Shown in pieces: positions 13,582 to 26,183 of a DNA stretch of 40,172 bases. Source of the DNA: a bacterium (GTDB lineage Bacteria; JADJOY01); contig JAXLQJ010000065.1 in assembly GCA_046331705.1 (NCBI GenBank), forward strand, positions 1-40,172. The letters run 5' to 3'. The notes under the pieces are model-generated. The model ran no database searches and had not been told where the DNA came from. It saw only the letters and a program-made list of their open reading frames with translations. The translations under genes and the position numbers were made by a program. Each line of letters opens with the position of its first letter. Position 1 is the stretch's first letter.

Positions 13582-15798
13582 TTACGGCGCGACCTGGAAT
13601 CGCAGCGCGCGCCGGTCCTCGCTTTCGCCCACCTTGAGCGTGCTCATCAACGTGTAGCTACCCACGGCGAGGTTGCTCGGCAGCGCCGATTCGAGCGTGG
13701 CCGAGAAGGCACCATTTTGCGGTCCGAGCTTTCGCGAGACCGACAAGAAATCCACGGCGCTGCCGTTGGGGTCGAGCACCTGCAGGGTGATCGAGCGCGG
13801 CTCGTCGGCCGACGCGTCCTGGATCTTGTACTTGAGCGTCACGTAGAGCTTGTCGCCGAGACGGAAGCTCGATTGCTGGGCTTGCTGCGAGCCGTCGTTG
13901 TTGACGTTGACCTTCGTGATCCGCACCTCACGCCCGGCGGGCGACGGTGCGGCAACCTGCGGGATGGGTTCCGGAGCAGGGGCCGGCGCGGCCCGCGGCG
14001 GCTCGACGACGGGGGGAGCCGGCACCGGGGCGGGGACGGGCGCCAGCGCTTCCGAGGGCACCGACCGGGGCGCGGGCTCCGGCGTGACCGGGCGGGGCGG
14101 AGGCGTCACCACGGCGACGGGTGGCGCAGGCGGTACCGCTCGGCCCATGCGCTCGAGCTGACCCTCGAGCTGCTCGTTGCGCGACTCTGCGGCCGCGAGC
14201 TTGGCCTCGGTCTGGTGGAGCATCTGCTCCACGGCCTCGCGCACCATCTCGGCGACGCGCAGCTGCTTCTCGGCGTCGGTGCGGGTGGCGAGCTTTTCCT
14301 TGAACTCGGCCTCGAGATCCGTCTTCGACTTCTCGAGCGTGGTGATCTGGTTCTTGGCCGCCGCGAGCTCGTTCTGCAGCGCCAGGATCTCGTTGGTGGA
14401 GCGGCTGATTTCCTTGTTGGCGTCCTGCCCCTTGGACACGGCGTCCTTGAGGTTCTGGTTGGCCGCCATGGCGCTCTGCCGGAGCCCCTCGGCCTCGGAC
14501 TCGATCTGTTGCCGGGCGCGGTTGGCATCGGCGAGCTGAGCGTTGAGGGCTTCGACCTGCGTGAGCAGCGACGCCCGCTCCTTCTCGAACTGCGCACGGG
14601 AGGCGGCTGCCTGCTCGAGGTTGGCCGAGGTGCTCTTGGTCTCCTCGGCGCTGCGATTGAGCGCGGTCTTGAGCGACTCGTTCTCGGTCGCCAGACGCTT
14701 GGCCTCGGCGTCGGTGGCGGCGCGGGTCCGGGTGAGCTCGTCGAGCCGCGCGCGCATGGCGGTGTTCTCTTCGCTCACCCGCTTGATCTCGGCGCTCAAG
14801 CGCTCGTTCGTCTGCGCCAGCGATTGGCTGTCGCTCTGCAACCGATCGAGGTTGGCCTTGAGCGTTCCCGCCTGGTCGCTCGATGCGCGCACCTTGTCGG
14901 AGAGCAGCGCGCTCGAGCTCATCTCCTTGTCGAGCTTCGCCTGCAGGTCGGCGCGCTCGGCCTCGGCCCGCTTGAGGCGCGCGTCGAGGTCGGCGTTGGT
15001 GCCGGTCAGGTCCTGGATGCGCTGGCGAAGCTGCTGGTTCTCGCGGCCTTTCTCCGCCTGCGCAGGACCGAGGTCCGCGATTTGCTTCTCCGCTTGGGTG
15101 GCACGGGTGCTGGCGGCCTGGGCGTCGCGCTGCAAGCGATCACGCTCGGCCTTGACCGACTCGAGCTCGATCTTCTGCTGGTTGAGCAAGGTGGTGATCT
15201 GCTGGACCTGGTTCGACAGGTCCTGGCGCTCGCGGAGCAAGCGCTCGCGCTCGCTGCTCGTGGCCTGGCCGGAGACCTTGGCGTCGAGGGCGGCGCGTTG
15301 CGCGTCGGCGATCGCCTGCTTGGCGGCATCCACTTCCTGACGGGACTGGTCGGTGCGGCGCTTGAGCTCCGCCGCGTCGCGGGCCATCCGGTCGATCTCG
15401 GCCTGCGCGCTCGCCTTTTCCGTCTGGAGCTGGCTCACGCGTGACTCGAGCTCGGCCTTCTCGTTGACCACCGCGACCATCTTCTCGACCAGCTTCTCCT
15501 TGTCCTGGCGGGCGTCGCGCTCGCGCGCCAGGAGCTGCTCGCGCTCGGTCTTGAGCGCTTCGGCGTCGCGCGAAGCGGCGCTGAGCTGGCTTTGCAGGTC
15601 GCGGAGTTGCGCCTGCGCCTTCATGAACTCCTGAACCAGGAGCTCGTGGTCGCTGGAGCGAATCACGTCCTCCGAGCTCGCGCCCGACTTGCTCGGGGCC
15701 GGCGTGCTCTTGCTTTGCGCGAACGCTGGAGCCAGGGGTGCGATACCGCTCGCGAGGAGCACGACGAGCACTGCCCTCGGCAGGGACGTGGGAAACAT
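13582..15798 (-). CDS. Exported long coiled-coil protein with Pro-rich linker and C-terminal beta-rich domain (738 aa)
   Basis: GGAGG RBS before ATG 15798. Signal peptide ending APAFA, about 500 aa of heptad-like E/Q/K/A/L sequence, a PAPP-rich stretch, then a beta-strand-patterned C-terminus. Confidence 0.85.
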   Translation of the reverse strand: MFPTSLPRAVLVVLLASGIAPLAPAFAQSKSTPAPSKSGASSEDVIRSSDHELLVQEFMKAQAQLRDLQSQLSAASRDAEALKTEREQLLARERDARQDKEKLVEKMVAVVNEKAELESRVSQLQTEKASAQAEIDRMARDAAELKRRTDQSRQEVDAAKQAIADAQRAALDAKVSGQATSSERERLLRERQDLSNQVQQITTLLNQQKIELESVKAERDRLQRDAQAASTRATQAEKQIADLGPAQAEKGRENQQLRQRIQDLTGTNADLDARLKRAEAERADLQAKLDKEMSSSALLSDKVRASSDQAGTLKANLDRLQSDSQSLAQTNERLSAEIKRVSEENTAMRARLDELTRTRAATDAEAKRLATENESLKTALNRSAEETKSTSANLEQAAASRAQFEKERASLLTQVEALNAQLADANRARQQIESEAEGLRQSAMAANQNLKDAVSKGQDANKEISRSTNEILALQNELAAAKNQITTLEKSKTDLEAEFKEKLATRTDAEKQLRVAEMVREAVEQMLHQTEAKLAAAESRNEQLEGQLERMGRAVPPAPPVAVVTPPPRPVTPEPAPRSVPSEALAPVPAPVPAPPVVEPPRAAPAPAPEPIPQVAAPSPAGREVRITKVNVNNDGSQQAQQSSFRLGDKLYVTLKYKIQDASADEPRSITLQVLDPNGSAVDFLSVSRKLGPQNGAFSATLESALPSNLAVGSYTLMSTLKVGESEDRRALRFQVAP

Positions 15799-15964: not shown

Positions 15965-16738
15965 TCAGGCTGGAAGCGTGGTACCGCAGTGGGGGCAAAA
16001 CCCCACGATCGGGTCGATGGGACGTGAGCAGCTCCGGCAATGCGACGGCGGCGCGCCGGCGCGACCGCTGCGGGGCGCCTCGGCGATCGAGAGGAGCAAA
16101 CCCTTCGCCGCCATGGCACGACGCAGCGCGGCGACGAACGCCTCCGGCAAGTCGCCGAGGATGAGCAGCTGCTGGTTGCGCGCGCGCAGTCGCGTGCGGC
16201 GGTCGAGGCTGCCGCTGGTCTCGATGCCCTCGATCGCCTCCAGCGCAAGCTTGAGGTCGCGTGCGCCCATCGCACGGTCGAGGACTCCGACCGGGGTGAA
16301 GGTCACCCGGCGGTTGGTGAGGTGGAGCATGCCGCTCTGGGTGATGAGGCGGCTGACGAAGAGATTCACGCGCGCCTCGGCGAGCACCTCTTCGCGGGGA
16401 CTGGCCTCGCCATCCGGGGTTCGGCTGAGCAGGGCGCGTAGCTCGCGCTCCAAGTTGTCGAAGTTGCGCCCGACGAATCGGAACGTCTTGATCGCCGTGC
16501 GCAAGGTGAGCTTCTTGGTGGCGTCGCCCTCGCTGCCGAGGCGCTGGATCTCGTCGACGGCGACCGTCACTCGCTCGGCGCCGACGGCACGATCGATCGT
16601 ACCGGTCGGCACGAACACCAGGCGTACGTTGGTGAGGTGCAGGATCCCGGTCTGGGCGAGCATCCGCGAGATGTAGTAAGTGGCCCTGACGCGCTCGATC
16701 TCGCGTTCGCTCGGCTCGAGAACGACGTCTGTGGCCAT
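15965..16738 (-). CDS. Protein with two GRAM/PH-like repeats and a C-terminal zinc ribbon
   Basis: Internal duplication GILHLTNVRLVFVPTG / GMLHLTNRRVTFTPVG. Terminal CRSC...CPHC. ATG 16738 start inferred. Confidence 0.75.
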   Translation of the reverse strand: MATDVVLEPSEREIERVRATYYISRMLAQTGILHLTNVRLVFVPTGTIDRAVGAERVTVAVDEIQRLGSEGDATKKLTLRTAIKTFRFVGRNFDNLERELRALLSRTPDGEASPREEVLAEARVNLFVSRLITQSGMLHLTNRRVTFTPVGVLDRAMGARDLKLALEAIEGIETSGSLDRRTRLRARNQQLLILGDLPEAFVAALRRAMAAKGLLLSIAEAPRSGRAGAPPSHCRSCSRPIDPIVGFCPHCGTTLPA

Positions 16739-16798: not shown

Positions 16799-16828
16799 TG
16801 TATAGGGCAGAAGCTCCGTGAACGTCAA
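16799..16828 (-). promoter_or_regulatory. Possible sigma70 promoter for the GRAM/PH-like gene
   Basis: TTGACG-N18-TATACA about 60 nt upstream of ATG 16738. Confidence 0.45.
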
Positions 16829-17039
16829 CGAATCTCCCCGAGGCGCATGCGGGCACGGCGCCCCGCGGTGGGGGCGGACGGTGCCCGGGCGCGCGCCCGA
16901 ACGGGACTTCCTGTGAGCCGGGTCACGCGCTCGTCGCCACCGGTGGCGGCCCGCGGTGATCGGGGGCGTCCCTAGCGCAGCGGTCGCATTTCGAGCATCG
17001 CCCAGCGTCGCCCGCCTCGGTCGGGCCAGGAGTCGAGCC

Positions 17040-17321
17040 ATGCGAACCTGTCATGCGTGCGGCACGGAGGTGGGCTTCGACGGTCGCGTGGGCTTTCGCG
17101 ACGAGTGCACCCGTTGCTTGCGACCGCTGCACATCTGCCGCAACTGCCGGCATTGGGACGAGGCGGCGGGCGGCATCTGCCGCGAGCCGGTGGCCGAGAA
17201 GGTGCGGGATCCCGAGCGCGCGAACCTGTGCGAATGGTTCCTCTTCCAGGAGGGCGAGCGCGGCGATGCGCAGGCGCTGGCGGCGGCCCGCGCCGCCGCC
17301 GAGAAGCTCTTCAAGGGCTGA
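17040..17321 (+). CDS. Small Cys-rich (probable zinc-binding) hypothetical protein, 93 aa
   Basis: AGGAG RBS. Eight Cys (CHAC, CTRC, CRNC, C, NLCEWF) and a C-terminal AAEKLFK. Confidence 0.8.
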   Translation: MRTCHACGTEVGFDGRVGFRDECTRCLRPLHICRNCRHWDEAAGGICREPVAEKVRDPERANLCEWFLFQEGERGDAQALAAARAAAEKLFKG

Positions 17322-17359
17322 CGGTCCCTGGGGCGCCGCGCCGAGCGCGCACCCGAGCG

Positions 17360-19426
17360 TCAGCCGCGCGGGCGCTGGGCCGCCATCGAGCGCGGCGCGG
17401 TGACGCCCTCGCCGCCGAGCTGGACCACGGCGCGCTGCGCCGCCGCCGCGGGCGCGGCGCGCTTGACCCCTTGATCGCGGCTGCGCAGCTGGCGGTACTC
17501 GGCCTCGGTGAGGATCAGGTACTCGTAGCACCGCACCCGCTGGTTCTCGAAGCCCTTGAACACCGGCTGGTGCGGGATCTCGCGGATCAGGATCATGCGA
17601 TCGATCGCCGGGTCCTTGTAGATCAGCAGGAAGGCATAGTGCTGGAAGGGCGACTTCGCGTCGCGGGTCTCCTCGGGGTCGTAGCGCGGGAAGTTCTCGG
17701 CGCGCACTTGCTCGCGCAGCTCCTGGAAGGTCGAGTCGAGCGACACGATCCCGTTGTTGTTGAGCGTGCCTTCCACGTCGATCGAAGCGCGGAAGATCCG
17801 TAACGGATCGGGCTCTCGGCTGGGGTTGGGGCCTTGCAGATACTTCTCGCCCGCCTTGCCGGTGGTGAGGCGCGAGGTGAGGTTGATGACCTGCCCGATG
17901 CGCCGGAACTCCTCGCGTGGCATGCCGTCGAGCGCGGTGCCCTGGTAGATCGAGATCAAGGCGCTCTCGCCGGTGCCGATGCCGACCCGGATGCCGTCCA
18001 CGAACGGGCTCTCCATCGGGCTGTCGAGGACGCGGCGCTTGATCACGCGCTGGCTCTCGTAGTGGTCGTAGAAGACCGAGACGTAGCGCACGGCATCGAT
18101 CGCGCGTTCGAAGCTCTCGAAGACCGCATCGCCCTCGAAGGACTCGGGGCGGCCATCGAACTCACCGAGCCGGTCGCGTCGGATCGCGAACAGGTTCTGG
18201 ATGGCGAGCCCCGCGTACTCGTTCAAGACCTCGCGGGTGCGGCGGCTGAAGCCGATGATGTCGAAGAGCGCGTACGTGCCCCAGCGGTTGTGGTTGTAGA
18301 GGTGGTCGCGATCGAGGGTGATGGGCACCGTGCGCTCGCTCAGCACGATGTCGTGGAGGTAGGTCGCGCCCTCCTCGATTCGCACCTCGCGGATCAAGCT
18401 CCGCAGCGCGTTCAGGAAATCCCAGATCAACAGATCGTTGGTGACCACCGCGAAGGCGCGCGCCAGCTCGCGCAGCCGCGCCAGGCTGGTGAGATCTCGC
18501 TTGAGCTCGCGCGGGTAGTCGGCGCTGGTCAGGTGGAAGAGCACGTATCGGCTCACGTCCTCACGATGGGCGAGGCGGTGGGCCCAGTCGTCGCGGGCCG
18601 TGGGCGGCGGGCCGTCCCGCATGAACGCTTCCTGGAGGAAGAGCGCGCGGCCGCTGGGGCGGCCGTGCTCGAGGTCGTCGTAGTCGCGGCGCAGCGTCTG
18701 CTCGACGACGTCGAAGAGACGCAGGAACGAGTCGGGGTCGATCCCGTAGTCCTTCACCAGGAAGACGCTGCGCAGGTTGGGGCGATGGTAGAGCGAGTCG
18801 GGGCGCTCGCTGTCGATGAGCCGGCTCTCGGTCAGCATCTTGAGCAACGGGTTCGCGAACACGCGCTCGGTCCACGGCCCGGGCTTGGTGCGATGGAAGA
18901 CGTGCCGGAGGGAGGCGTTGGCGAGACGGTGACGGGTGGCCAGGCTGGCCAGCACCAGACGCTTGACGCGCCCGTAGCGCGCGGGGTCGCGGCCCAGCAG
19001 GTGGTTGAGTCGGTGGTGGGCGTTGAGCGCCGTGGCGATGCGCTCGCTGAGGAGCAGCCAAACCACGTTCTCGAACTTGAAGATCCCGCCGCCGCTCACC
19101 GCCTTGACCAGCAGGTCGGAGAGCGCCTCGACGTAGCGCTCGCCGAACAGCCGTTGCTCGGCGTCGGGGCTGGTCAGGTCCTCACGGTGGTGAGGGTCGT
19201 CGAGGTGCTGATCGATCAGCCGATTGACGAGCTTCTCGAGCTCGCGATCGAGGTCGTGATTGGGCGCGACCGGGAAGCCCTCGCCGATGATCTCGTCGGG
19301 CGTGCCGATCTTCGAGAGGTGGGGGATCTCGTTCTCGATGCCGGGCAAGAGCCGGCGCAGCGTCGCGACCGAGGTGCCGAATCGGCACTTGCGCGCCACG
19401 GTTTCGAGACGTTTGAGCTCACCCAT
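17360..19426 (-). CDS. 688-aa protein with unknown N-terminal region and class III nucleotide cyclase-like C-terminal domain
   Basis: FDIIGFS (D389), FEGDA (D433), IRVGIGTG and IGQVINLTSRL (N515/R519). Amino-acid composition is typical of a real protein, unlike the overlapping frames. Confidence 0.8.
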   Translation of the reverse strand: MGELKRLETVARKCRFGTSVATLRRLLPGIENEIPHLSKIGTPDEIIGEGFPVAPNHDLDRELEKLVNRLIDQHLDDPHHREDLTSPDAEQRLFGERYVEALSDLLVKAVSGGGIFKFENVVWLLLSERIATALNAHHRLNHLLGRDPARYGRVKRLVLASLATRHRLANASLRHVFHRTKPGPWTERVFANPLLKMLTESRLIDSERPDSLYHRPNLRSVFLVKDYGIDPDSFLRLFDVVEQTLRRDYDDLEHGRPSGRALFLQEAFMRDGPPPTARDDWAHRLAHREDVSRYVLFHLTSADYPRELKRDLTSLARLRELARAFAVVTNDLLIWDFLNALRSLIREVRIEEGATYLHDIVLSERTVPITLDRDHLYNHNRWGTYALFDIIGFSRRTREVLNEYAGLAIQNLFAIRRDRLGEFDGRPESFEGDAVFESFERAIDAVRYVSVFYDHYESQRVIKRRVLDSPMESPFVDGIRVGIGTGESALISIYQGTALDGMPREEFRRIGQVINLTSRLTTGKAGEKYLQGPNPSREPDPLRIFRASIDVEGTLNNNGIVSLDSTFQELREQVRAENFPRYDPEETRDAKSPFQHYAFLLIYKDPAIDRMILIREIPHQPVFKGFENQRVRCYEYLILTEAEYRQLRSRDQGVKRAAPAAAAQRAVVQLGGEGVTAPRSMAAQRPRG

Positions 19427-19478
19427 GGGTCGGATCGCGAATCGGGGATTCCGAACGCGGTTCCCCGACCGTCAACCG

Positions 19479-19494
19479 AGCAACGATCGTGCCG
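19479..19494 (-). promoter_or_regulatory. sigma54 (-24/-12) promoter of the cyclase-like gene
   Basis: CGGCACG-ATCG-TTGCT with exact GG-N10-GC spacing, 52 nt upstream of the ATG. Confidence 0.75.
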
Positions 19495-19698
19495 TCGCCG
19501 GGCCGAGCAGCGGGCGAAGTATTCTCAATGATTTCGGGCGGGACCTTCGTCCGCGCGAGCACGTGGGTGCATCCTCGACCGGTTTCCGCCAACGCGGTGA
19601 CAGTCGATGACGCTTCGTTGCAACTGTCTCGATGGGGCGCCCGCCGGAGGCGGAACGCGAATGGGGACGGCGCGAGGACCCGGGTGGGCTGGGGTCCG

Positions 19699-21168
19699 TC
19701 AGGCGAGCGGCGCGGCTGCGGTGGCGGGCTCGAGGCGCGGCGACGCGGCGTCGCGGGGACGCCCGTAGAACGCGCGCTTGCCCGCGACCCAGCCCTTGTA
19801 GAGGAGCTGGGCTCGGTTCGGCGTCTGTCGCAGGACCCGCAGCACGCGACGCGGCTGGGTGTAGAACCGCCGATAGCCGCGGTTGCGGATGTCGAGGAGC
19901 TCGTCGTCGCTCAGTCGCGAGCGCTGGCTCTTGGGCGTCTGGTAGTCGTAGCCGGTGATGGCGTCGAGCGTGAACTCGGTGCGATGCCCCTCGCCGGCGC
20001 TCGGGCTCACCGAGTCGTCGTAGTAGTTGACGATCGAGAGCGAGATCGAGTTGAGCGGCAGCGAGCACGCGAGGTCGATGGTTCGCTCCATCTCCTCGCG
20101 GGTCTCGTCCTCGAAGCCGATCATGAAGAAGCAGTGCGTGAAGATGCCGCGCTCGCTGCACTTGCGGATGGTCTCGCAGATCTTGGCGATCTGGCTGCGG
20201 CGTCCGAGCGACTTCTGGCGTTCCTCGCTCGCCGTCTCGATGGCGAACGCGGCGAAGATCGTGCCCATGCGCTTGAACTGGTCGAGCAGCTCGTCGTCGA
20301 CGATCTCGCCGCGCAGCCCGTTGGGGAACGACCAGTTGAAGCGCATTCCCGAGGCGAGCACGGCGCTGCACACGCTCTTGGCGCGGGCCAGGTCGAAGTT
20401 GAAGATGTCGTCCTGCACGAGGATGTCGCGCACCTGGTAGCGGTCGTGAAGGATGCGCAGCTCCTCGATCACGTTCTCGGGCGAGCGGGCGCGGAACTTC
20501 TTCCCCTGCACGTGATGGCAATAACTACAGCGATACGGGCACCCGCGTGAGGTGAAGATCACCGCGTTGCGCTTCGCGACGAAGAGGTACTGGTTGGCGA
20601 ACGAGAAGTCGTAGTCGGAGATGCGGACCAGGTCCCACGCGGGATGCGGGATGGCGTCGAGATCGGCGATGAACGGCCGCTCGGGAGTCTGGATCGTGAT
20701 CCCGTCGGCGTTGCGCAGGGCGATGCCCGCGACCTGGGTGAGGTCGCCACCGGCGTCGAGGGTCCGCACCAGGTCGACGAGCGTCTCCTCGCCCTCGCCG
20801 ATCACCGCCGCGTCCACGTTCGGGTCGCGCAGGATCGAGCGCCACGAGCAGCTCGCGTACGGGCCGCCGAAGATCATCGGCACGCGCGGAAGCGCGCTCT
20901 TCACGGCCCGTGCGACGCGATGCGCGACGGCGCCGTCGACGTTGAACGAGCCGATGCCGACCAGATCCGGCCCGAGCGCCACGATCCGCCGCGCGGCTTC
21001 CTCGGGCTCGGGATAGTCGACGAACAGGTCGACGATGTGGACGTCGACCTCGGGGAGGAACTTGCGCAAGTAGCTCGCGAGGTAGAGCAGGCCGAGCGGC
21101 AGGAAGCGCTCGGTGACCGACGAGCACATGGCCGAGCGGGCCAGGACGATGCGTTTGACTCGATTCAT
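19699..21168 (-). CDS. B12-binding domain radical SAM protein (class B type)
   Basis: PLGLLYLASYL, FGGPYA, IGEGE, TSRGCPYRCSYC (CxxxCxxC), DDIF, AIET and FMIGF motifs. Confidence 0.92.
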   Translation of the reverse strand: MNRVKRIVLARSAMCSSVTERFLPLGLLYLASYLRKFLPEVDVHIVDLFVDYPEPEEAARRIVALGPDLVGIGSFNVDGAVAHRVARAVKSALPRVPMIFGGPYASCSWRSILRDPNVDAAVIGEGEETLVDLVRTLDAGGDLTQVAGIALRNADGITIQTPERPFIADLDAIPHPAWDLVRISDYDFSFANQYLFVAKRNAVIFTSRGCPYRCSYCHHVQGKKFRARSPENVIEELRILHDRYQVRDILVQDDIFNFDLARAKSVCSAVLASGMRFNWSFPNGLRGEIVDDELLDQFKRMGTIFAAFAIETASEERQKSLGRRSQIAKICETIRKCSERGIFTHCFFMIGFEDETREEMERTIDLACSLPLNSISLSIVNYYDDSVSPSAGEGHRTEFTLDAITGYDYQTPKSQRSRLSDDELLDIRNRGYRRFYTQPRRVLRVLRQTPNRAQLLYKGWVAGKRAFYGRPRDAASPRLEPATAAAPLA

Positions 21169-21296
21169 GCGCGATTCGCTGCGGGGACGGGAACGCGGCG
21201 CAGAATACCAGCCACGCCACGACCGGCCAACGAACGCGCTGCGGCGGGGCGTGCGAGGGGACGCGGCGCGCGCACGCCTGATACTCTCGGCGCGCC

Positions 21297-22043
21297 GTGG
21301 AAACCGCGCTCTACGACGAGTGGAACCGGATCGAGTCCCACCACTGGTGGTTCGTGGGGCGCGGCTCGCTCTTCGTGCGGATGTTGAGCCGCTACCTGGG
21401 GGCCGCGCGCCACCGCGTGCTCGACGTCGGATGCGGGACCGGCAGCAACGTGTTGCGGCTGGGGCGATTCGGGCAGGTGATCGGTCTGGATCCGTCGCGC
21501 GCGGCGCTCGGCTATTGCCGCGATCGCCTGGCGGGACGAGGTGCGCTCACCGGCGGCACGATGTCGTGCCTGCCTTTCGGCGCCGGTGCCTTCGACGTGG
21601 TGACCGCGTTCGACGTGCTCGAGCACGATGCGGATCCGGAGGCGTGCGTGCGTGAGGTGTACCGCGTGCTCGAGCCGGGCGGCTGGTTCCTCGCGAGCGT
21701 GCCGGCCTACCGGCTCATGTGGGGCGATCACGATCGGGTCGCGCACCACTACCGTCGTTATCGGCGCGCCGAGATCGAACGCTTGCTTCGCGACGCCGGC
21801 TTCGAGGTGGTCCGCTCCACCCACCTCAACTCGTTCTTGTTCCCGATCGCGTTCGTGTTCCGGCAGGTGAAGAACGCGATCGGCAAGCTCGTGCCCCACG
21901 AACCGCGCTCGGATTTCGGCGGCACCGCGCCGCCACTGGTCAACGGCGTGCTGCGGCGCATCTTCGAGGCCGAGGGGCCGCTCTTGGATCGCGTCGATCT
22001 GCCGTTCGGTCTTTCCATCGCCTGCCTCGCGCGTCGGCCGTGA
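21297..22043 (+). CDS. Class I SAM-dependent methyltransferase
   Basis: HWWFVGR, VLDVGCGTG, FDVLEH, VPAY.LMWGDHD and HYRRY. This type is commonly found in glycan loci. Confidence 0.9.
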   Translation: METALYDEWNRIESHHWWFVGRGSLFVRMLSRYLGAARHRVLDVGCGTGSNVLRLGRFGQVIGLDPSRAALGYCRDRLAGRGALTGGTMSCLPFGAGAFDVVTAFDVLEHDADPEACVREVYRVLEPGGWFLASVPAYRLMWGDHDRVAHHYRRYRRAEIERLLRDAGFEVVRSTHLNSFLFPIAFVFRQVKNAIGKLVPHEPRSDFGGTAPPLVNGVLRRIFEAEGPLLDRVDLPFGLSIACLARRP

Positions 22044-24454
22044 CCGCGGAGGGTCGCGAAGCAGGCGCCGCGGAGACGGCGCCGCGTGCGCCGGGCGTGG
22101 TCGAGCCGGTGACGCCGCCCGCGAGTGCCGGTGCCCTCGGAGTGGGCGAGGAGGCGCTCGGCTGGAGCGCGTTCGTCGCGGCGGTGGCGCTGCTCTGGCT
22201 CTGGCAGGGCCAAGGGCTGGTCGCCGGCCTCGGCACGCTCGGCGCGGACCTCGCGTGCTTCACGCCGATCGTGGCCGCGGGAGCGTGGCTCGCCGCAGCG
22301 CCCGCGCGACGCCGGCGGGCGCTGCTCTTCCTCGACTCGGCGTGCGCGAGCCCACGGCGCGCGGCGCTGCTCGTGACGCTGGTGCTGCTCGGCGCGGTCA
22401 AGGTGTACGCGGTGCCGGGGTTTCGTGAGCTGGACGGCGACGGCGCCTGCCACACCACGGCGGCGCGCCTGGTGGCCGACACGTTCGCCGCTCGCGAGTG
22501 GCCGACCTGGTCGAACGCGTGGGCGATGGGGTTCCCGTTCCTGCAGTTCTACCCACCGCTCTTCGCGTGGATCTCGGGCGGGCTCACGTGGCTCACCGAC
22601 GATCCGCGCTTCGCGGTTCGCGCGGTGCTCGCGCTCGCGCATCTGGCCTCGGGGTGGGGCGCGTTCGCGCTCGGCCGCCGGCTCTTTCCGCGTCCCGGCG
22701 CCGCGATCGTGTGTGCGATCGGATACGCGCTCACGCCCTGGCATCTCTTCGAGGTCTTCCACTGGAACCGCTTCCCCACGGCGCTGATCTGGGCGCTGTG
22801 GCCGTGGGTGCTGTGGATCTTCGAGCGTGGCCGCGACGGCGCGCGTTGGGTGTTCGGTTGCGCCTCGTTGCTCGCGGTCGCGGCGCTCGCCCATCACGGC
22901 GCCGCGTTCTTCGTGGGCGAGCTGCTCGGCCTGTGGGCGCTCTTGCGCTGGCTCGAGCAGCCCGACGCGGTGCAAGCGGCGCGGGCGGGGCTGCGGGCGC
23001 TGGCGGCCGCCGGTGCGCTGGCGGTCGCGCTGGTGGCCTTCTTCGTGCTGCCGTACGCGCTCGAATCGAAGCTGACGTTCGAGCCTCCTGGCCTCGGCGG
23101 GGTTCGCTTCGACTTCGATCAGCCGCATCTCGCGACGGTCCTGTGGCCGGCGCGTCGCCCGGTCGGCCATTCGGGCTACCTCGGCCTCGCGCTGGTGCTG
23201 CCGGGCTGGGCGGGAGCGGCGCTCGCGAGCTTGCGTCGCCAGCGAGGGCGCTGGGCCACGGTCGGCTGCCTCGGTTACGCCTGGCTGCTCGCCTTGGGCC
23301 ACGATCTCCCGATCTATCCATGGATCCCGTTCGCGAAGGCGCTCTTCTTCGGCGGGCGCTACCTGATCTTCGTGGCGCTCTTCCTGGCCCTCGGGCTGGG
23401 GCATCTGTGGTGCTGGCTCGAGGAGCGCGGTTGGTGGTCGAGCCCGAGCACGCGGGCGTGGGCACGGGCCACGGCGTTGCTGGTGTTGCTCGCCGACCTC
23501 GGCGGCACGACGTTCACCCGCTATCGGCATCCGTATCCGGCGGGGCGCACGGGCGAAGCGCGACGTCAGGCGTTCGAGTCTCTCGGCACGTCCGCCGGGA
23601 TGGAGTTGGGCACCCGCGTCCTCGAGCTCCCCGATGCGCCACGTGATTACCTGTGGAGCGCGCTCTTGCCGCTCACCGCGCGACACGCCACCGCGGCGCC
23701 AGGGCTGTGGGGCACGCTGCGCTCCGGGATGTACTTCTTTCGCGGATGGGTGGACGTGGACGAGGCGTGGCACGCGAATCCGGGATCGCTTGCGCCGGGC
23801 TCCCTCGATCGGCTGGCGCTGAGCGCGACGCGCACGCTGCTCGCCACGCGCGCGGGCCCCACGGGTGATTCCACGCGTGTCACGGTGGATCTCGGCTCGC
23901 GCACCGGCTGGGTGATCGCCGCGTCGCGCTGGCGACCCATGAGCGACGACTTGGAGCTGCCGAGCGAGGGGTGGGAGCGGCCGTTCGGCGTCGACTCGAC
24001 GCCGCCGGGTGCTTGGGATCGAATCGTCGCCGCGATGGCCATCGATCGTGATTCGGCGACGGCGCGCACGCTGATCGTGCGCCGCGAGCTGCCGCTCCTC
24101 GGTGAGCCGGGTCCTGACGACGAGCCGGCACGGCCCCGGCTCACCGTCGAGAAGGTTCACGTGACGCCGACCACGGTCACCGTCGATCTCGACCTCGACC
24201 GCGCCGCGTATCTGCGCTTCGCGCAGTCGTACTATCCGCATCAACGCGTGCGCCTCGACGGGCACCGGACGGATGCGGTGCCGGACGTCACCCACGCGAC
24301 GGTTATCGCCGCGCCCGCGGGCCAGCACACGGTGCGCTTCGAGGGGGGCTCGTCGTGGCTGCGGCGGATCCTGGGCGCGCTCTCGTTCTCCGTGCTGTGC
24401 GCGGCGGCGGGATTCGAGGTCCGGGCGCGGGTTCGCGCGAGGCGCCACCCGTGA
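22040..24454 (+). CDS. Polytopic membrane protein, GT-C/YfhO-like (PTPS-related membrane protein type)
   Basis: DG..H and WSNAWAMGFPFLQFYPPL motifs, many TM helices, C-terminal QSYYP...AGQHTVRF. GTGA overlap with the methyltransferase stop. Confidence 0.75.
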   Translation: MTAEGREAGAAETAPRAPGVVEPVTPPASAGALGVGEEALGWSAFVAAVALLWLWQGQGLVAGLGTLGADLACFTPIVAAGAWLAAAPARRRRALLFLDSACASPRRAALLVTLVLLGAVKVYAVPGFRELDGDGACHTTAARLVADTFAAREWPTWSNAWAMGFPFLQFYPPLFAWISGGLTWLTDDPRFAVRAVLALAHLASGWGAFALGRRLFPRPGAAIVCAIGYALTPWHLFEVFHWNRFPTALIWALWPWVLWIFERGRDGARWVFGCASLLAVAALAHHGAAFFVGELLGLWALLRWLEQPDAVQAARAGLRALAAAGALAVALVAFFVLPYALESKLTFEPPGLGGVRFDFDQPHLATVLWPARRPVGHSGYLGLALVLPGWAGAALASLRRQRGRWATVGCLGYAWLLALGHDLPIYPWIPFAKALFFGGRYLIFVALFLALGLGHLWCWLEERGWWSSPSTRAWARATALLVLLADLGGTTFTRYRHPYPAGRTGEARRQAFESLGTSAGMELGTRVLELPDAPRDYLWSALLPLTARHATAAPGLWGTLRSGMYFFRGWVDVDEAWHANPGSLAPGSLDRLALSATRTLLATRAGPTGDSTRVTVDLGSRTGWVIAASRWRPMSDDLELPSEGWERPFGVDSTPPGAWDRIVAAMAIDRDSATARTLIVRRELPLLGEPGPDDEPARPRLTVEKVHVTPTTVTVDLDLDRAAYLRFAQSYYPHQRVRLDGHRTDAVPDVTHATVIAAPAGQHTVRFEGGSSWLRRILGALSFSVLCAAAGFEVRARVRARRHP

Positions 24455-25386
24455 ACGTCGCGATCCTCGCCGGTGGCGTCGGCGGCGCGCGTTTCGTGCG
24501 GGCGGCGAGCGCCGAGCTCGGCGCCGAGGCCATCACGGTGATCGTGAACACCGGCGACGATCAATCGTTCCACGGCCTCGAGATCTGCCCCGATCTCGAC
24601 TCGATCGTGTACACGCTCGCGGGCGAGAACGACGCGCAGCGCGGTTGGGGGCTTCGCGACGAGAGCTTCCGCGCGTTCGAGTCCCTCAAGCGATTCGACC
24701 CCGGCGCGTGGTTCCAGCTCGGCGATCGCGACCTCGGCACCCACCTCTTCCGCGCCCAGGCGCGCGCGGCGGGTGTGCCGCTCTCGGAGATCACCCGGCG
24801 CATCGCGGGGACGTTCGGATTGCGTGAGGTGGTGTTGCCGATGAGCGACGACCCGGTGCGCACGCGCGTCGTGACCGAGCGCGGCACGCTCACGTTCCAG
24901 GAGTACCACGTGCGCGAGCGTTCGCTGCCGCGCATCGAGCGCGTGCGCTACCAGGGCGGGGAAGAGGCCGCCCCGGCCCCGGGTGTGCTTCGGGCGTTGG
25001 CCGCTGCCGACGTCATCCTGGCGGCCCCCAGCAACCCGGTGAGCTCGATCGGCCCGATCCTCGCCGTGCCGGCGATCCACGCGGCACTCGTGGGTGCCGC
25101 GGCGCCGGTCGTCGCGCTGAGCGGCATCCGGGGCGGATCACCGTTTCGCGGCGACGCCGACCGCTTCCTCGCCGGCGCCGGGCACGAGGTGAGCGCGCTC
25201 GGTGTCGCGCGGATCTATCGCGACTGGATCGACGGGTTCGTGCTCGACGTCGCGGACGCGGCGCTCGCGCCGGCGATCGAGCAGCTCGGTTTGCGCGTGG
25301 CCGACTGCGACACGGCTCTCGAGCCGCTGGAGCGGGGGCGGGAGGTGGTCCGTCGCTGCGTCGCGCTCGCCGCGACGCTCGCGTGA
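24451..25386 (+). CDS. cofD: 2-phospho-L-lactate / phosphoenolpyruvate transferase (F420 biosynthesis, FbiA)
   Basis: GGVGGARF, NTGDD, CPDLDS, GDRDLGTH, PMSDD, FQEY and PSNPVSSIGPIL motifs. GTGA overlap with the upstream gene. Confidence 0.94.
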   Translation: MNVAILAGGVGGARFVRAASAELGAEAITVIVNTGDDQSFHGLEICPDLDSIVYTLAGENDAQRGWGLRDESFRAFESLKRFDPGAWFQLGDRDLGTHLFRAQARAAGVPLSEITRRIAGTFGLREVVLPMSDDPVRTRVVTERGTLTFQEYHVRERSLPRIERVRYQGGEEAAPAPGVLRALAAADVILAAPSNPVSSIGPILAVPAIHAALVGAAAPVVALSGIRGGSPFRGDADRFLAGAGHEVSALGVARIYRDWIDGFVLDVADAALAPAIEQLGLRVADCDTALEPLERGREVVRRCVALAATLA

Positions 25387-25448
25387 TCTCCCCGCGGAGT
25401 CTGCCGATTGGTGTGGGCGTCGCATCCCGCGATGCGCCCCGCACCTTG

Positions 25449-25472
25449 CGCCCCACCAGGCGCCCCACCAGG
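25449..25472 (+). repeat. 12-bp perfect tandem duplication in the cofD-cofC spacer
   Basis: CGCCCCACCAGG twice. Confidence 0.8.
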
Positions 25473-25514
25473 TCTCGGCTGGCGCGCGCCGGATGTGCTA
25501 CCCCTGGCGCGGTC

Positions 25515-26183
25515 ATGAACGTCGTGCTGATTCCCATCAAGGAGCTGGGCGCGGCGAAGAGTCGCTTGCGGCCGGTGCTCGGCGACGCCGAACGGGAGCG
25601 CCTGGTGCTCGGCCTCGCCGAGAAGGCCATTCGCGCGGCGCTCGAGGCGGACGGCGTGGACCGCGTGCTGGTCGTGAGCCGCGATCCGCGGGTGCTGGCG
25701 CGCGCCGCGGAATGCCGAGCGCAGGTGGTCGCCGAGAGCTCGCCCACGCATGACGAGCGGGCGCTCAATCGCGCCCTCGACCAAGGCCGGGCGCGTGCCC
25801 TCGAGCTGGGCGCGACGGCGCTGGCGGTGCTGGTCGCCGATCTGCCCACCATCGAGCCCGCCGACGTGAGCGCGCTCTTCGAGGCCGCCCGAGGCGATGC
25901 TGCGGTCGTGCTGGCTCGCTCCCACGACGGCGCGGGGCTGGGGGCGCTGGTCGAGAGCCCGATCGCCGGCCTGCCGTTTCACTTCGGCGACGGGCGTGCG
26001 TTCGAGCATCATCTCCACGAGGCGCGCACGCGCGGGCTGGGGACGCGCACGCTCGACCGTCCCGGGTTGGCCCTCGATCTGGACACGACCGACGACTGGG
26101 CGCGCCATCGCGACGTGCTGGGGCGCGCGTGGCCGGTGGGCGCGGTGCACGACCGGCCCGCGCGCGTCGTTCACACGCGATGA
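25515..26183 (+). CDS. cofC: Phospholactate / PEP guanylyltransferase (F420 biosynthesis, FbiD)
   Basis: IPIK...AKSRL, LNRAL, ADLP and LDLDT motifs; located between cofD and cofE. Confidence 0.9.
   Translation: MNVVLIPIKELGAAKSRLRPVLGDAERERLVLGLAEKAIRAALEADGVDRVLVVSRDPRVLARAAECRAQVVAESSPTHDERALNRALDQGRARALELGATALAVLVADLPTIEPADVSALFEAARGDAAVVLARSHDGAGLGALVESPIAGLPFHFGDGRAFEHHLHEARTRGLGTRTLDRPGLALDLDTTDDWARHRDVLGRAWPVGAVHDRPARVVHTR

Follow-up and report, generated by a model that had tools for sequence, protein, structure and literature searches.

A deep-branching family in the class III cyclase superfamily: new architecture and non-canonical base pocket

Signals by cyclic AMP (cAMP) and cyclic GMP (cGMP) arise mainly from class III cyclases, whose base specificity is as a rule deduced from two residues, which are Lys with Asp or Thr in adenylyl cyclases (ACs) and Glu with Cys or Ser in guanylyl cyclases (GCs). 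Can a protein that follows neither code be a working cyclase, and which nucleotide would it use? This question is raised by a 688-codon gene on a bacterial contig of 40,172 nt (JAXLQJ010000065.1, assembly GCA_046331705.1), the whole of which we call the window. A preliminary description had proposed that the gene encodes an active cyclase that may make an unusual cyclic nucleotide or need a partner subunit, and had named it the window's best candidate for an undescribed system. Our analysis confirms the underlying observation and partly supports its interpretation: the protein belongs to a deep-branching family of new architecture, with a non-canonical base pocket, within the class III cyclase superfamily. 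We put the probability that it is a class III nucleotidyl cyclase, soluble and cytoplasmic, from a very divergent, undescribed family at roughly 55%.

All residue numbers in the preliminary description proved correct when the codons were verified, namely those of D389 and D433 (44 residues apart), N515, R519, S429 and R508. S429 precedes D433 by four residues and R508 precedes N515 by seven, and the pair S429/R508 indeed fits neither the AC nor the GC code. We aligned columns 340–580 of the family alignment, as query, with a profile of the ten PF00211 (Guanylate_cyc) domains of the same genome using hhalign, and obtained a probability of 96.9% (E 1.3e-10, 159 columns). With a 39-sequence alignment the values were 96.6% and E 5.8e-10. 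The controls gave 0.5% for 12 GGDEF domains of the genome, 0.1% for the reversed family and 0.2% for the N-terminal domain. Since hhalign aligns the motifs residue for residue with a canonical cyclase of the protein's own genome, they are not a matter of chance; N515 and R519, for example, pair with the Asn and Arg of VNLSSRL. The alignment stopped short of the residues beyond a family-specific insert at 520–558 and so did not reach K624, which its motif and its structural range mark as the probable phosphate-binding Lys.

The predicted structure agrees. An AlphaFold2 model from 39 sequences reached a predicted local distance difference test (pLDDT) score of 84.4 and a predicted template modelling score of 0.75. 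Foldseek returned 160 matches in the PDB at E<=0.001, and every match listed was the catalytic domain of a class III adenylyl or guanylyl cyclase, with CyaB (3r5g_B, E 4.2e-7) at the top. A second structural aligner, independent of Foldseek, gave matches spanning model residues ~376–641, and the 50 listed fall on the cyclase homology domain (CHD). In the aligner's order of values, these included 6fht_B (14.7, 2.8, 178), 3r5g_B (14.3, 2.5, 182), Rv1900c (1ybt_A; 14.2, 2.5, 165), the cUMP synthase PycC (7r65_A; 12.6, 3.2, 183), a cytidylate cyclase (8jsf_B; 10.4, 3.7, 186), GGDEF domains (9–10, 3.1–3.6, 124–131) and an AC-like ATP-binding protein (6yii_A; 9.0, 3.1, 167). For the preliminary description, the lack of a predicted cyclase fold would have told against its proposal; the predicted fold and hhalign both give a class III cyclase fold. 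A model from 4 close sequences was discarded (pLDDT 45.7, with the CHD region as helices at ~28), and a GGDEF diguanylate cyclase was rejected, as neither PF00990 homology nor a GG[DE]EF site was found. An ESM Atlas search with a 57% identical homologue led to unnamed clusters of Acidobacteriota (0.94) and to a PF00211 cluster (0.92), which we treat as leads only.

Conservation of the active site separates the family into two groups. At positions 389/429/431/433/480/508/515/519/524/624, 21 of the 39 aligned sequences read D-[S/G/F]-E-D-R-[R/K]-N-R-K-K. N515 and R519 are kept in all 21 members with both Asp, position 508 is Arg or Lys in the same 21/21, and E431 is invariant in this intact clade. 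K624 is found in 21/21 intact and 0/18 degenerate members, and K624-G625 is invariant in one family alignment. The metal and transition-state residues, which had been described as intact, and the probable phosphate residues are all present and jointly conserved across a clade whose members are 24–33% identical to the window protein. Residues that are kept or lost together argue that they work together as a site in the window's clade. The intact set forms one side of a single branch with a Shimodaira–Hasegawa-like approximate likelihood ratio (SH-aLRT) support of 99, although our branch supports come from a quick maximum-likelihood tree, the careful tree search being unfinished. In a 23-sequence table, intact and degenerate members numbered 12 and 11.

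From these data we infer a mechanism of the usual class III kind. The CHD would work as a head-to-tail homodimer like other class III enzymes, with D389 and D433 holding two Mg2+/Mn2+ ions, R480, R519 and K624 holding the triphosphate, and N515 orienting the ribose. The 3'-OH would then attack the alpha-phosphate, turning a nucleoside triphosphate (NTP) into a 3',5'-cyclic nucleoside monophosphate (cNMP) and pyrophosphate. The 340-aa helical N-terminal domain would be a likely regulatory or sensor module, acting via the long helix 315–343. A homodimer prediction with two copies of residues 315–655 gave a score of 0.01 and a mark of 0.42, which we weighed neither for nor against dimerisation.

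Several results speak against an active cyclase. A Pfam scan of the protein at E<=10 found neither PF00211 nor DUF2652, its sole match being a weak HTH_DeoR, and a PF00211 search of the whole genome found 10 other domains, with the window protein absent. NCBIfam gave no match to the protein, and PDB sequence searches with the single protein and with a 23-sequence profile gave nothing relevant. The canonical base-specifying pair is absent, the 39-aa insert adjoins the active-site helix, and no conserved neighbour points to a pathway. Moreover, 18 of the 39 relatives keep the architecture but have lost most catalytic residues (R480 is kept in 17 of these 18), and the five distant relatives of ~1000 aa that we examined are all without them. 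That degenerate forms have persisted for so long argues for an additional role of the architecture free of catalysis, and the conserved role of the family need not be catalysis. The protein might accordingly be a nucleotide-binding, non-cyclising module, in which NTP and metal are bound by the CHD as a ligand or slow switch, the protein acting mainly through its N-terminal domain as scaffold or regulator, as its degenerate relatives must. We consider this unlikely, though it is the alternative to be taken most seriously. All 21 intact members, across deep divergence, have the transition-state Asn and Arg together with the probable phosphate Lys; mere binding would not need all of these, so their retention counts against it. 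Unlike 6yii, by its PDB title a class III AC-like ATP-binding protein of P. aeruginosa, and other degenerate CHDs, the window protein keeps the full catalytic set.

If the protein is the active cyclase that we favour, its base is not readable from the sequence. Position 429 is unlikely to be decisive because it varies (S, G, F). E431 follows two residues later and faces the same way on the strand. With an acid on the beta2-beta3 hairpin and a base on beta5, pairing with guanine or adenine would be possible; we therefore guess that a purine NTP is used, GTP being no less likely than ATP. The unusual product that had been suggested does not follow from non-canonical specificity residues. According to PMC4886424, Rv1900c is an atypical cyclase with a non-canonical residue at the asparagine position that purportedly has both AC and GC activity, and PMC4215837 reports that substitution of the two base-specifying residues of Ma1120 raises GC and lowers AC activity. 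These cases indicate that an odd code alone does not predict an odd product. We hold as doubtful a fuller reading, in which a core, non-defence cyclase makes a product other than cAMP (cGMP via a charge-swapped Glu431/Arg508 pair, or a pyrimidine cNMP), the 340-aa helical domain is a new sensor, and in the Myxococcota relatives the same scaffold has become a pseudoenzyme linked with DUF507 and with an outer-membrane-like protein. An active cyclase in a housekeeping setting whose product is neither cAMP nor cGMP (e.g. cCMP or cUMP), with E431 and R508 forming a pyrimidine-type pocket, is improbable to us. For EaPycC, PMC11224242 gives F100, R142 and Q144 as CTP-binding residues near the metal residues D102 and D146, and by residue numbering alone Q144 would correspond to E431 and R142 to S429.

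An anti-phage role, with the gene encoding the cyclase of a system that is Pycsar-like or otherwise based on cyclic nucleotides, is very hard to credit. In its favour stands a weak PADLOC match to PycC, which is not significant (E 0.041, 11 bits). Against it, no effector with a cNMP-binding, TIR or transmembrane (TM) domain adjoins it, and its presence in 6/6 genomes of the window's phylum, together with the place of its Myxococcota relatives in a conserved DUF507 block, is the behaviour of a core gene and not of a defence island. The 29 window open reading frames (ORFs) scanned held no cNMP-binding domain fused to TM or TIR, and no PF00027 (cNMP-binding) match was found on the window's contig, the genome as a whole having 11 cNMP-binding matches. 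A Pycsar-type two-gene system is thereby ruled out here. The window protein is also much larger than the PycC proteins 7r65, 8jsf and 8jsz, which lack its N-terminal domain, and its gene is without the defence context of Pycsar.

Two further proposals of the preliminary description were not borne out. No partner subunit was found: the window's genome and four others searched have one family locus each, so the degenerate forms are not partners of the active ones, and no intact form was seen alongside a degenerate one. Nor is it an undescribed 'system', as the neighbours are housekeeping genes and synteny is seen only with close relatives. The family itself was not described in the literature that we searched on class III and nucleotidyl cyclases, DUF507, Myxococcota and pseudoenzymes.

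Compared with bacterial class III AC and GC domains such as CyaB of P. aeruginosa (3r5g), the Rv1900c CHD (1ybt) and Cya2 (2w01), the window protein goes undetected by PF00211, and its family has Ser/Gly/Phe instead of Lys/Glu at 429, Arg/Lys instead of Asp/Thr/Cys at 508, an invariant Glu431 in FEGDA and a 39-aa insert after the Asn/Arg helix. Its 340-aa N-terminal domain is a further difference. It resembles DUF2652, which PMC4886424 presents as a divergent bacterial family tied to class III cyclases by profile and fold recognition alone; the DUF2652 proteins of that account are single-domain, ~250 aa long and from Actinobacteria, Bacteroidetes and Proteobacteria; the architecture of the window protein differs. 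We thus have a family that evades curated models yet retains the full catalytic apparatus, with the two-residue code replaced by an invariant Glu and a basic residue, and testing it would show whether that code generalises. Active and degenerate clades of one architecture offer a natural comparison for the role of a cyclase scaffold after catalysis is lost, and the unrecognised N-terminal domain joins the list of possible cyclase regulators. Even if the product is plain cAMP, the result would remain of use in annotating a small group of wastewater bacteria and Myxococcota.

The domain layout is given in Table 1. The N-terminal domain had been said to resemble no known sensor, and it gave zero Pfam, NCBIfam or PDB sequence matches and no usable match in the ESM Atlas. 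It is kept even in the distant relatives of ~1000 aa (HMM positions 1–265, E down to 1e-22). A C-terminal tail of ~150 aa had also been described; much of this is not separate, since the cyclase fold reaches ~641 and includes the FKGFE strands, and only the ~47 residues 642–688 form a tail, with pLDDT <50 for residues 658–685. Within the insert, the model has low pLDDT at 526–536 and a hairpin at 547–557; GK524xG is kept only in intact members and D540-P541 in nearly all members. The absence of a TM helix was upheld, the top 19-residue Kyte-Doolittle mean being 1.12.

Table 1. Coordinates of the cyclase gene, its domains and its active-site residues in the window.
Feature	Position	Strand	Remarks
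Whole gene	17360..19426	minus	688 codons + stop (17360–17362), stop-free ORF
N-terminal domain, residues 1–343	18398..19426	minus	all-helical with one small beta hairpin (38–54); AlphaFold2 mostly pLDDT >80
Linker, residues 344–375	18302..18397	minus	short strands between long helix 315–343 and cyclase domain (model secondary structure)
Class III CHD, residues 376–641	17504..18301	minus	
D389, first metal-binding Asp (FDIIGFS)	18260..18262	minus	hhalign pairing with Asp of FSDLVGFT; codon verified
S429-F-E431-G-D433	18128..18142	minus	D433 as second metal Asp; base-specifying Lys/Glu position occupied by Ser; hhalign S429=K, D433=D of KLIGDA
R508...N515-L-T-S-R519	17870..17905	minus	Arg at the Asp/Thr/Cys base-specifying position, then transition-state Asn and Arg (INLTSR)
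Family-specific insert, residues 520–558 (39 aa)	17753..17869	minus	between helix alpha4 and strand beta6
K624 in FKGFE, probable phosphate-binding Lys of beta7-beta8 hairpin	17555..17557	minus	motif likeness to VKGK of canonical domain
C-terminal tail, residues 642–688	17363..17503	minus	one helix (641–653), then Ala/Gly/Arg-rich low-confidence sequence

We also assessed how widely the family occurs. Homologous-protein searches with the single protein or a profile found just the 3 close homologues. A HMMER profile of four close sequences, run against 1.84 billion representative proteins, retrieved 24 proteins at E<=0.001, most of them 1050–1190 aa long and sharing the N-terminal domain and the CHD. 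These long relatives extend past the CHD with a low-complexity linker of 300–400 aa and then a conserved domain of ~110 aa. Pfam gave no family for 21 of the 22 relatives scanned, the exception being a weak eukaryote-like match carrying PF00211. In species-representative genomes we found 17 loci with relatives, five close (84–93% identity) and twelve at 24–34%, with L017 and L018 being halves of one gene split across contigs of a single metagenome-assembled genome (MAG); a metagenome scan added 4 loci. The twelve distant loci lie in MAGs titled Myxococcota, 'Rickettsiales' or 'Gammaproteobacteria'. MAGs titled 'uncultured Rickettsiales' or 'Gammaproteobacteria' hold long-form genes (L008, L010–L018); L008 and L010 share a GTDB class with Myxococcota-titled MAGs, and those titles look wrong.

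The window's GTDB phylum comprises six species genomes (one family, two genera), and the gene is present in all six. Four long-form genomes (G006–G009) all fall in one class, where at least 79 of 182 genomes match, ~24 of them strongly and over the full length; the remaining matches are weak and run via the N- and C-terminal domains of ~1000-aa ORFs. In an even sample of 401 genomes of the long-form phylum, the short-form profile picks up 14 at E<=1e-8, none of them new. The window protein is a short form of the family. Its genome did not yield the C-terminal ~110-aa domain (best E 0.3 among 90,799 six-frame fragments), and the position of the short forms beside one long-form clade on the quick tree (support 89) suggests that the C-terminal extension was lost. 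A wider superfamily of ~900–1100-aa proteins (genomes G010–G155; e.g. L043:5645-8542(+) and L041:6493-9453(-)) has the family's N- and C-terminal domains, with a middle domain that resembles the cyclase fold without any catalytic residues. Five of these proteins were scanned and none had a Pfam or NCBIfam match.

The window, of ~70% G+C, holds many spurious ORFs. The 688-aa ORF has G+C fractions of 0.68/0.42/0.92 at codon positions 1/2/3, the pattern of a true gene in a ~70% G+C genome, and its ATG start aligns with M1 of 3/3 close homologues. A whole-genome search found a single copy in the 8.17-Mb genome. A promoter and terminator scan of 16800–19900 found zero sites. DNA near-identical to the window occurs in activated-sludge and wastewater metagenomes from 12 studies. 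Contigs from RNA libraries match the gene exactly at 18032–18233 (two runs of one sample) and 19266–19416 (another study), and also match the B12-binding radical S-adenosylmethionine (SAM) gene that lies 272 nt upstream on the same strand. They cover two short pieces of the gene, the uncovered parts being uninformative, and are a weak hint of transcription, as DNA can occur in such libraries.

The window further encodes rho, a pseudouridine synthase, meaB, ribF, lptF/G, a GT2 glycosyltransferase, a sigma-54 activator, thiE, thiD, a methyltransferase, a PMT_2-like membrane protein, cofD, cofC, a LuxR-type response regulator and RNR, in a gene order common to close relatives only. At 19699–26183, the B12-binding radical SAM gene stands together with a SAM methyltransferase, a PMT_2/PTPS-related membrane protein, cofD and cofC, an order kept in close relatives; this could be a cofactor or glycolipid modification cluster. 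A Cys-rich 93-aa ORF with several CxxC pairs (17040–17321, plus strand) converges on the 3' end of the cyclase gene across a 38-nt gap; three close relatives share it at 74–95% identity, and Pfam assigns it to no family. The protein at 15965–16738 (minus strand) carries a C-terminal zinc ribbon and gives two weak PH/GRAM-like Pfam matches that fall below threshold (E ~0.005), and the start of its 358-aa ORF is probably ~100 codons later, at MATDVV. At 13582–15787 (minus strand) lies a secreted-looking protein of ~735 aa with a very long coiled coil and a Pro-rich region, 44–59% identical in close relatives.

The long forms in Myxococcota have a setting of their own. They are followed by an ORF resembling an outer-membrane protein, with a signal peptide (~280–370 aa, ending in F), and then by DUF507 at 10/10 loci, and a DUF507 gene also follows at 5/5 more distant loci. 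This block (L007–L016, L030 and L041–L045; e.g. L007:11614-13002) is kept across the class and is without known function; a clpX-type gene lies near the long form in one locus (L009). The DUF507 gene of the window's genome is on contig C11, with no family member beside it. On another contig of that genome (C43:30692-42031, minus strand) we observed five tandem paralogous ORFs with open frames of ~900–1600 aa, each with a near-identical canonical class III cyclase domain first (PSGTVTFLFTDIEGSTQLWE...).
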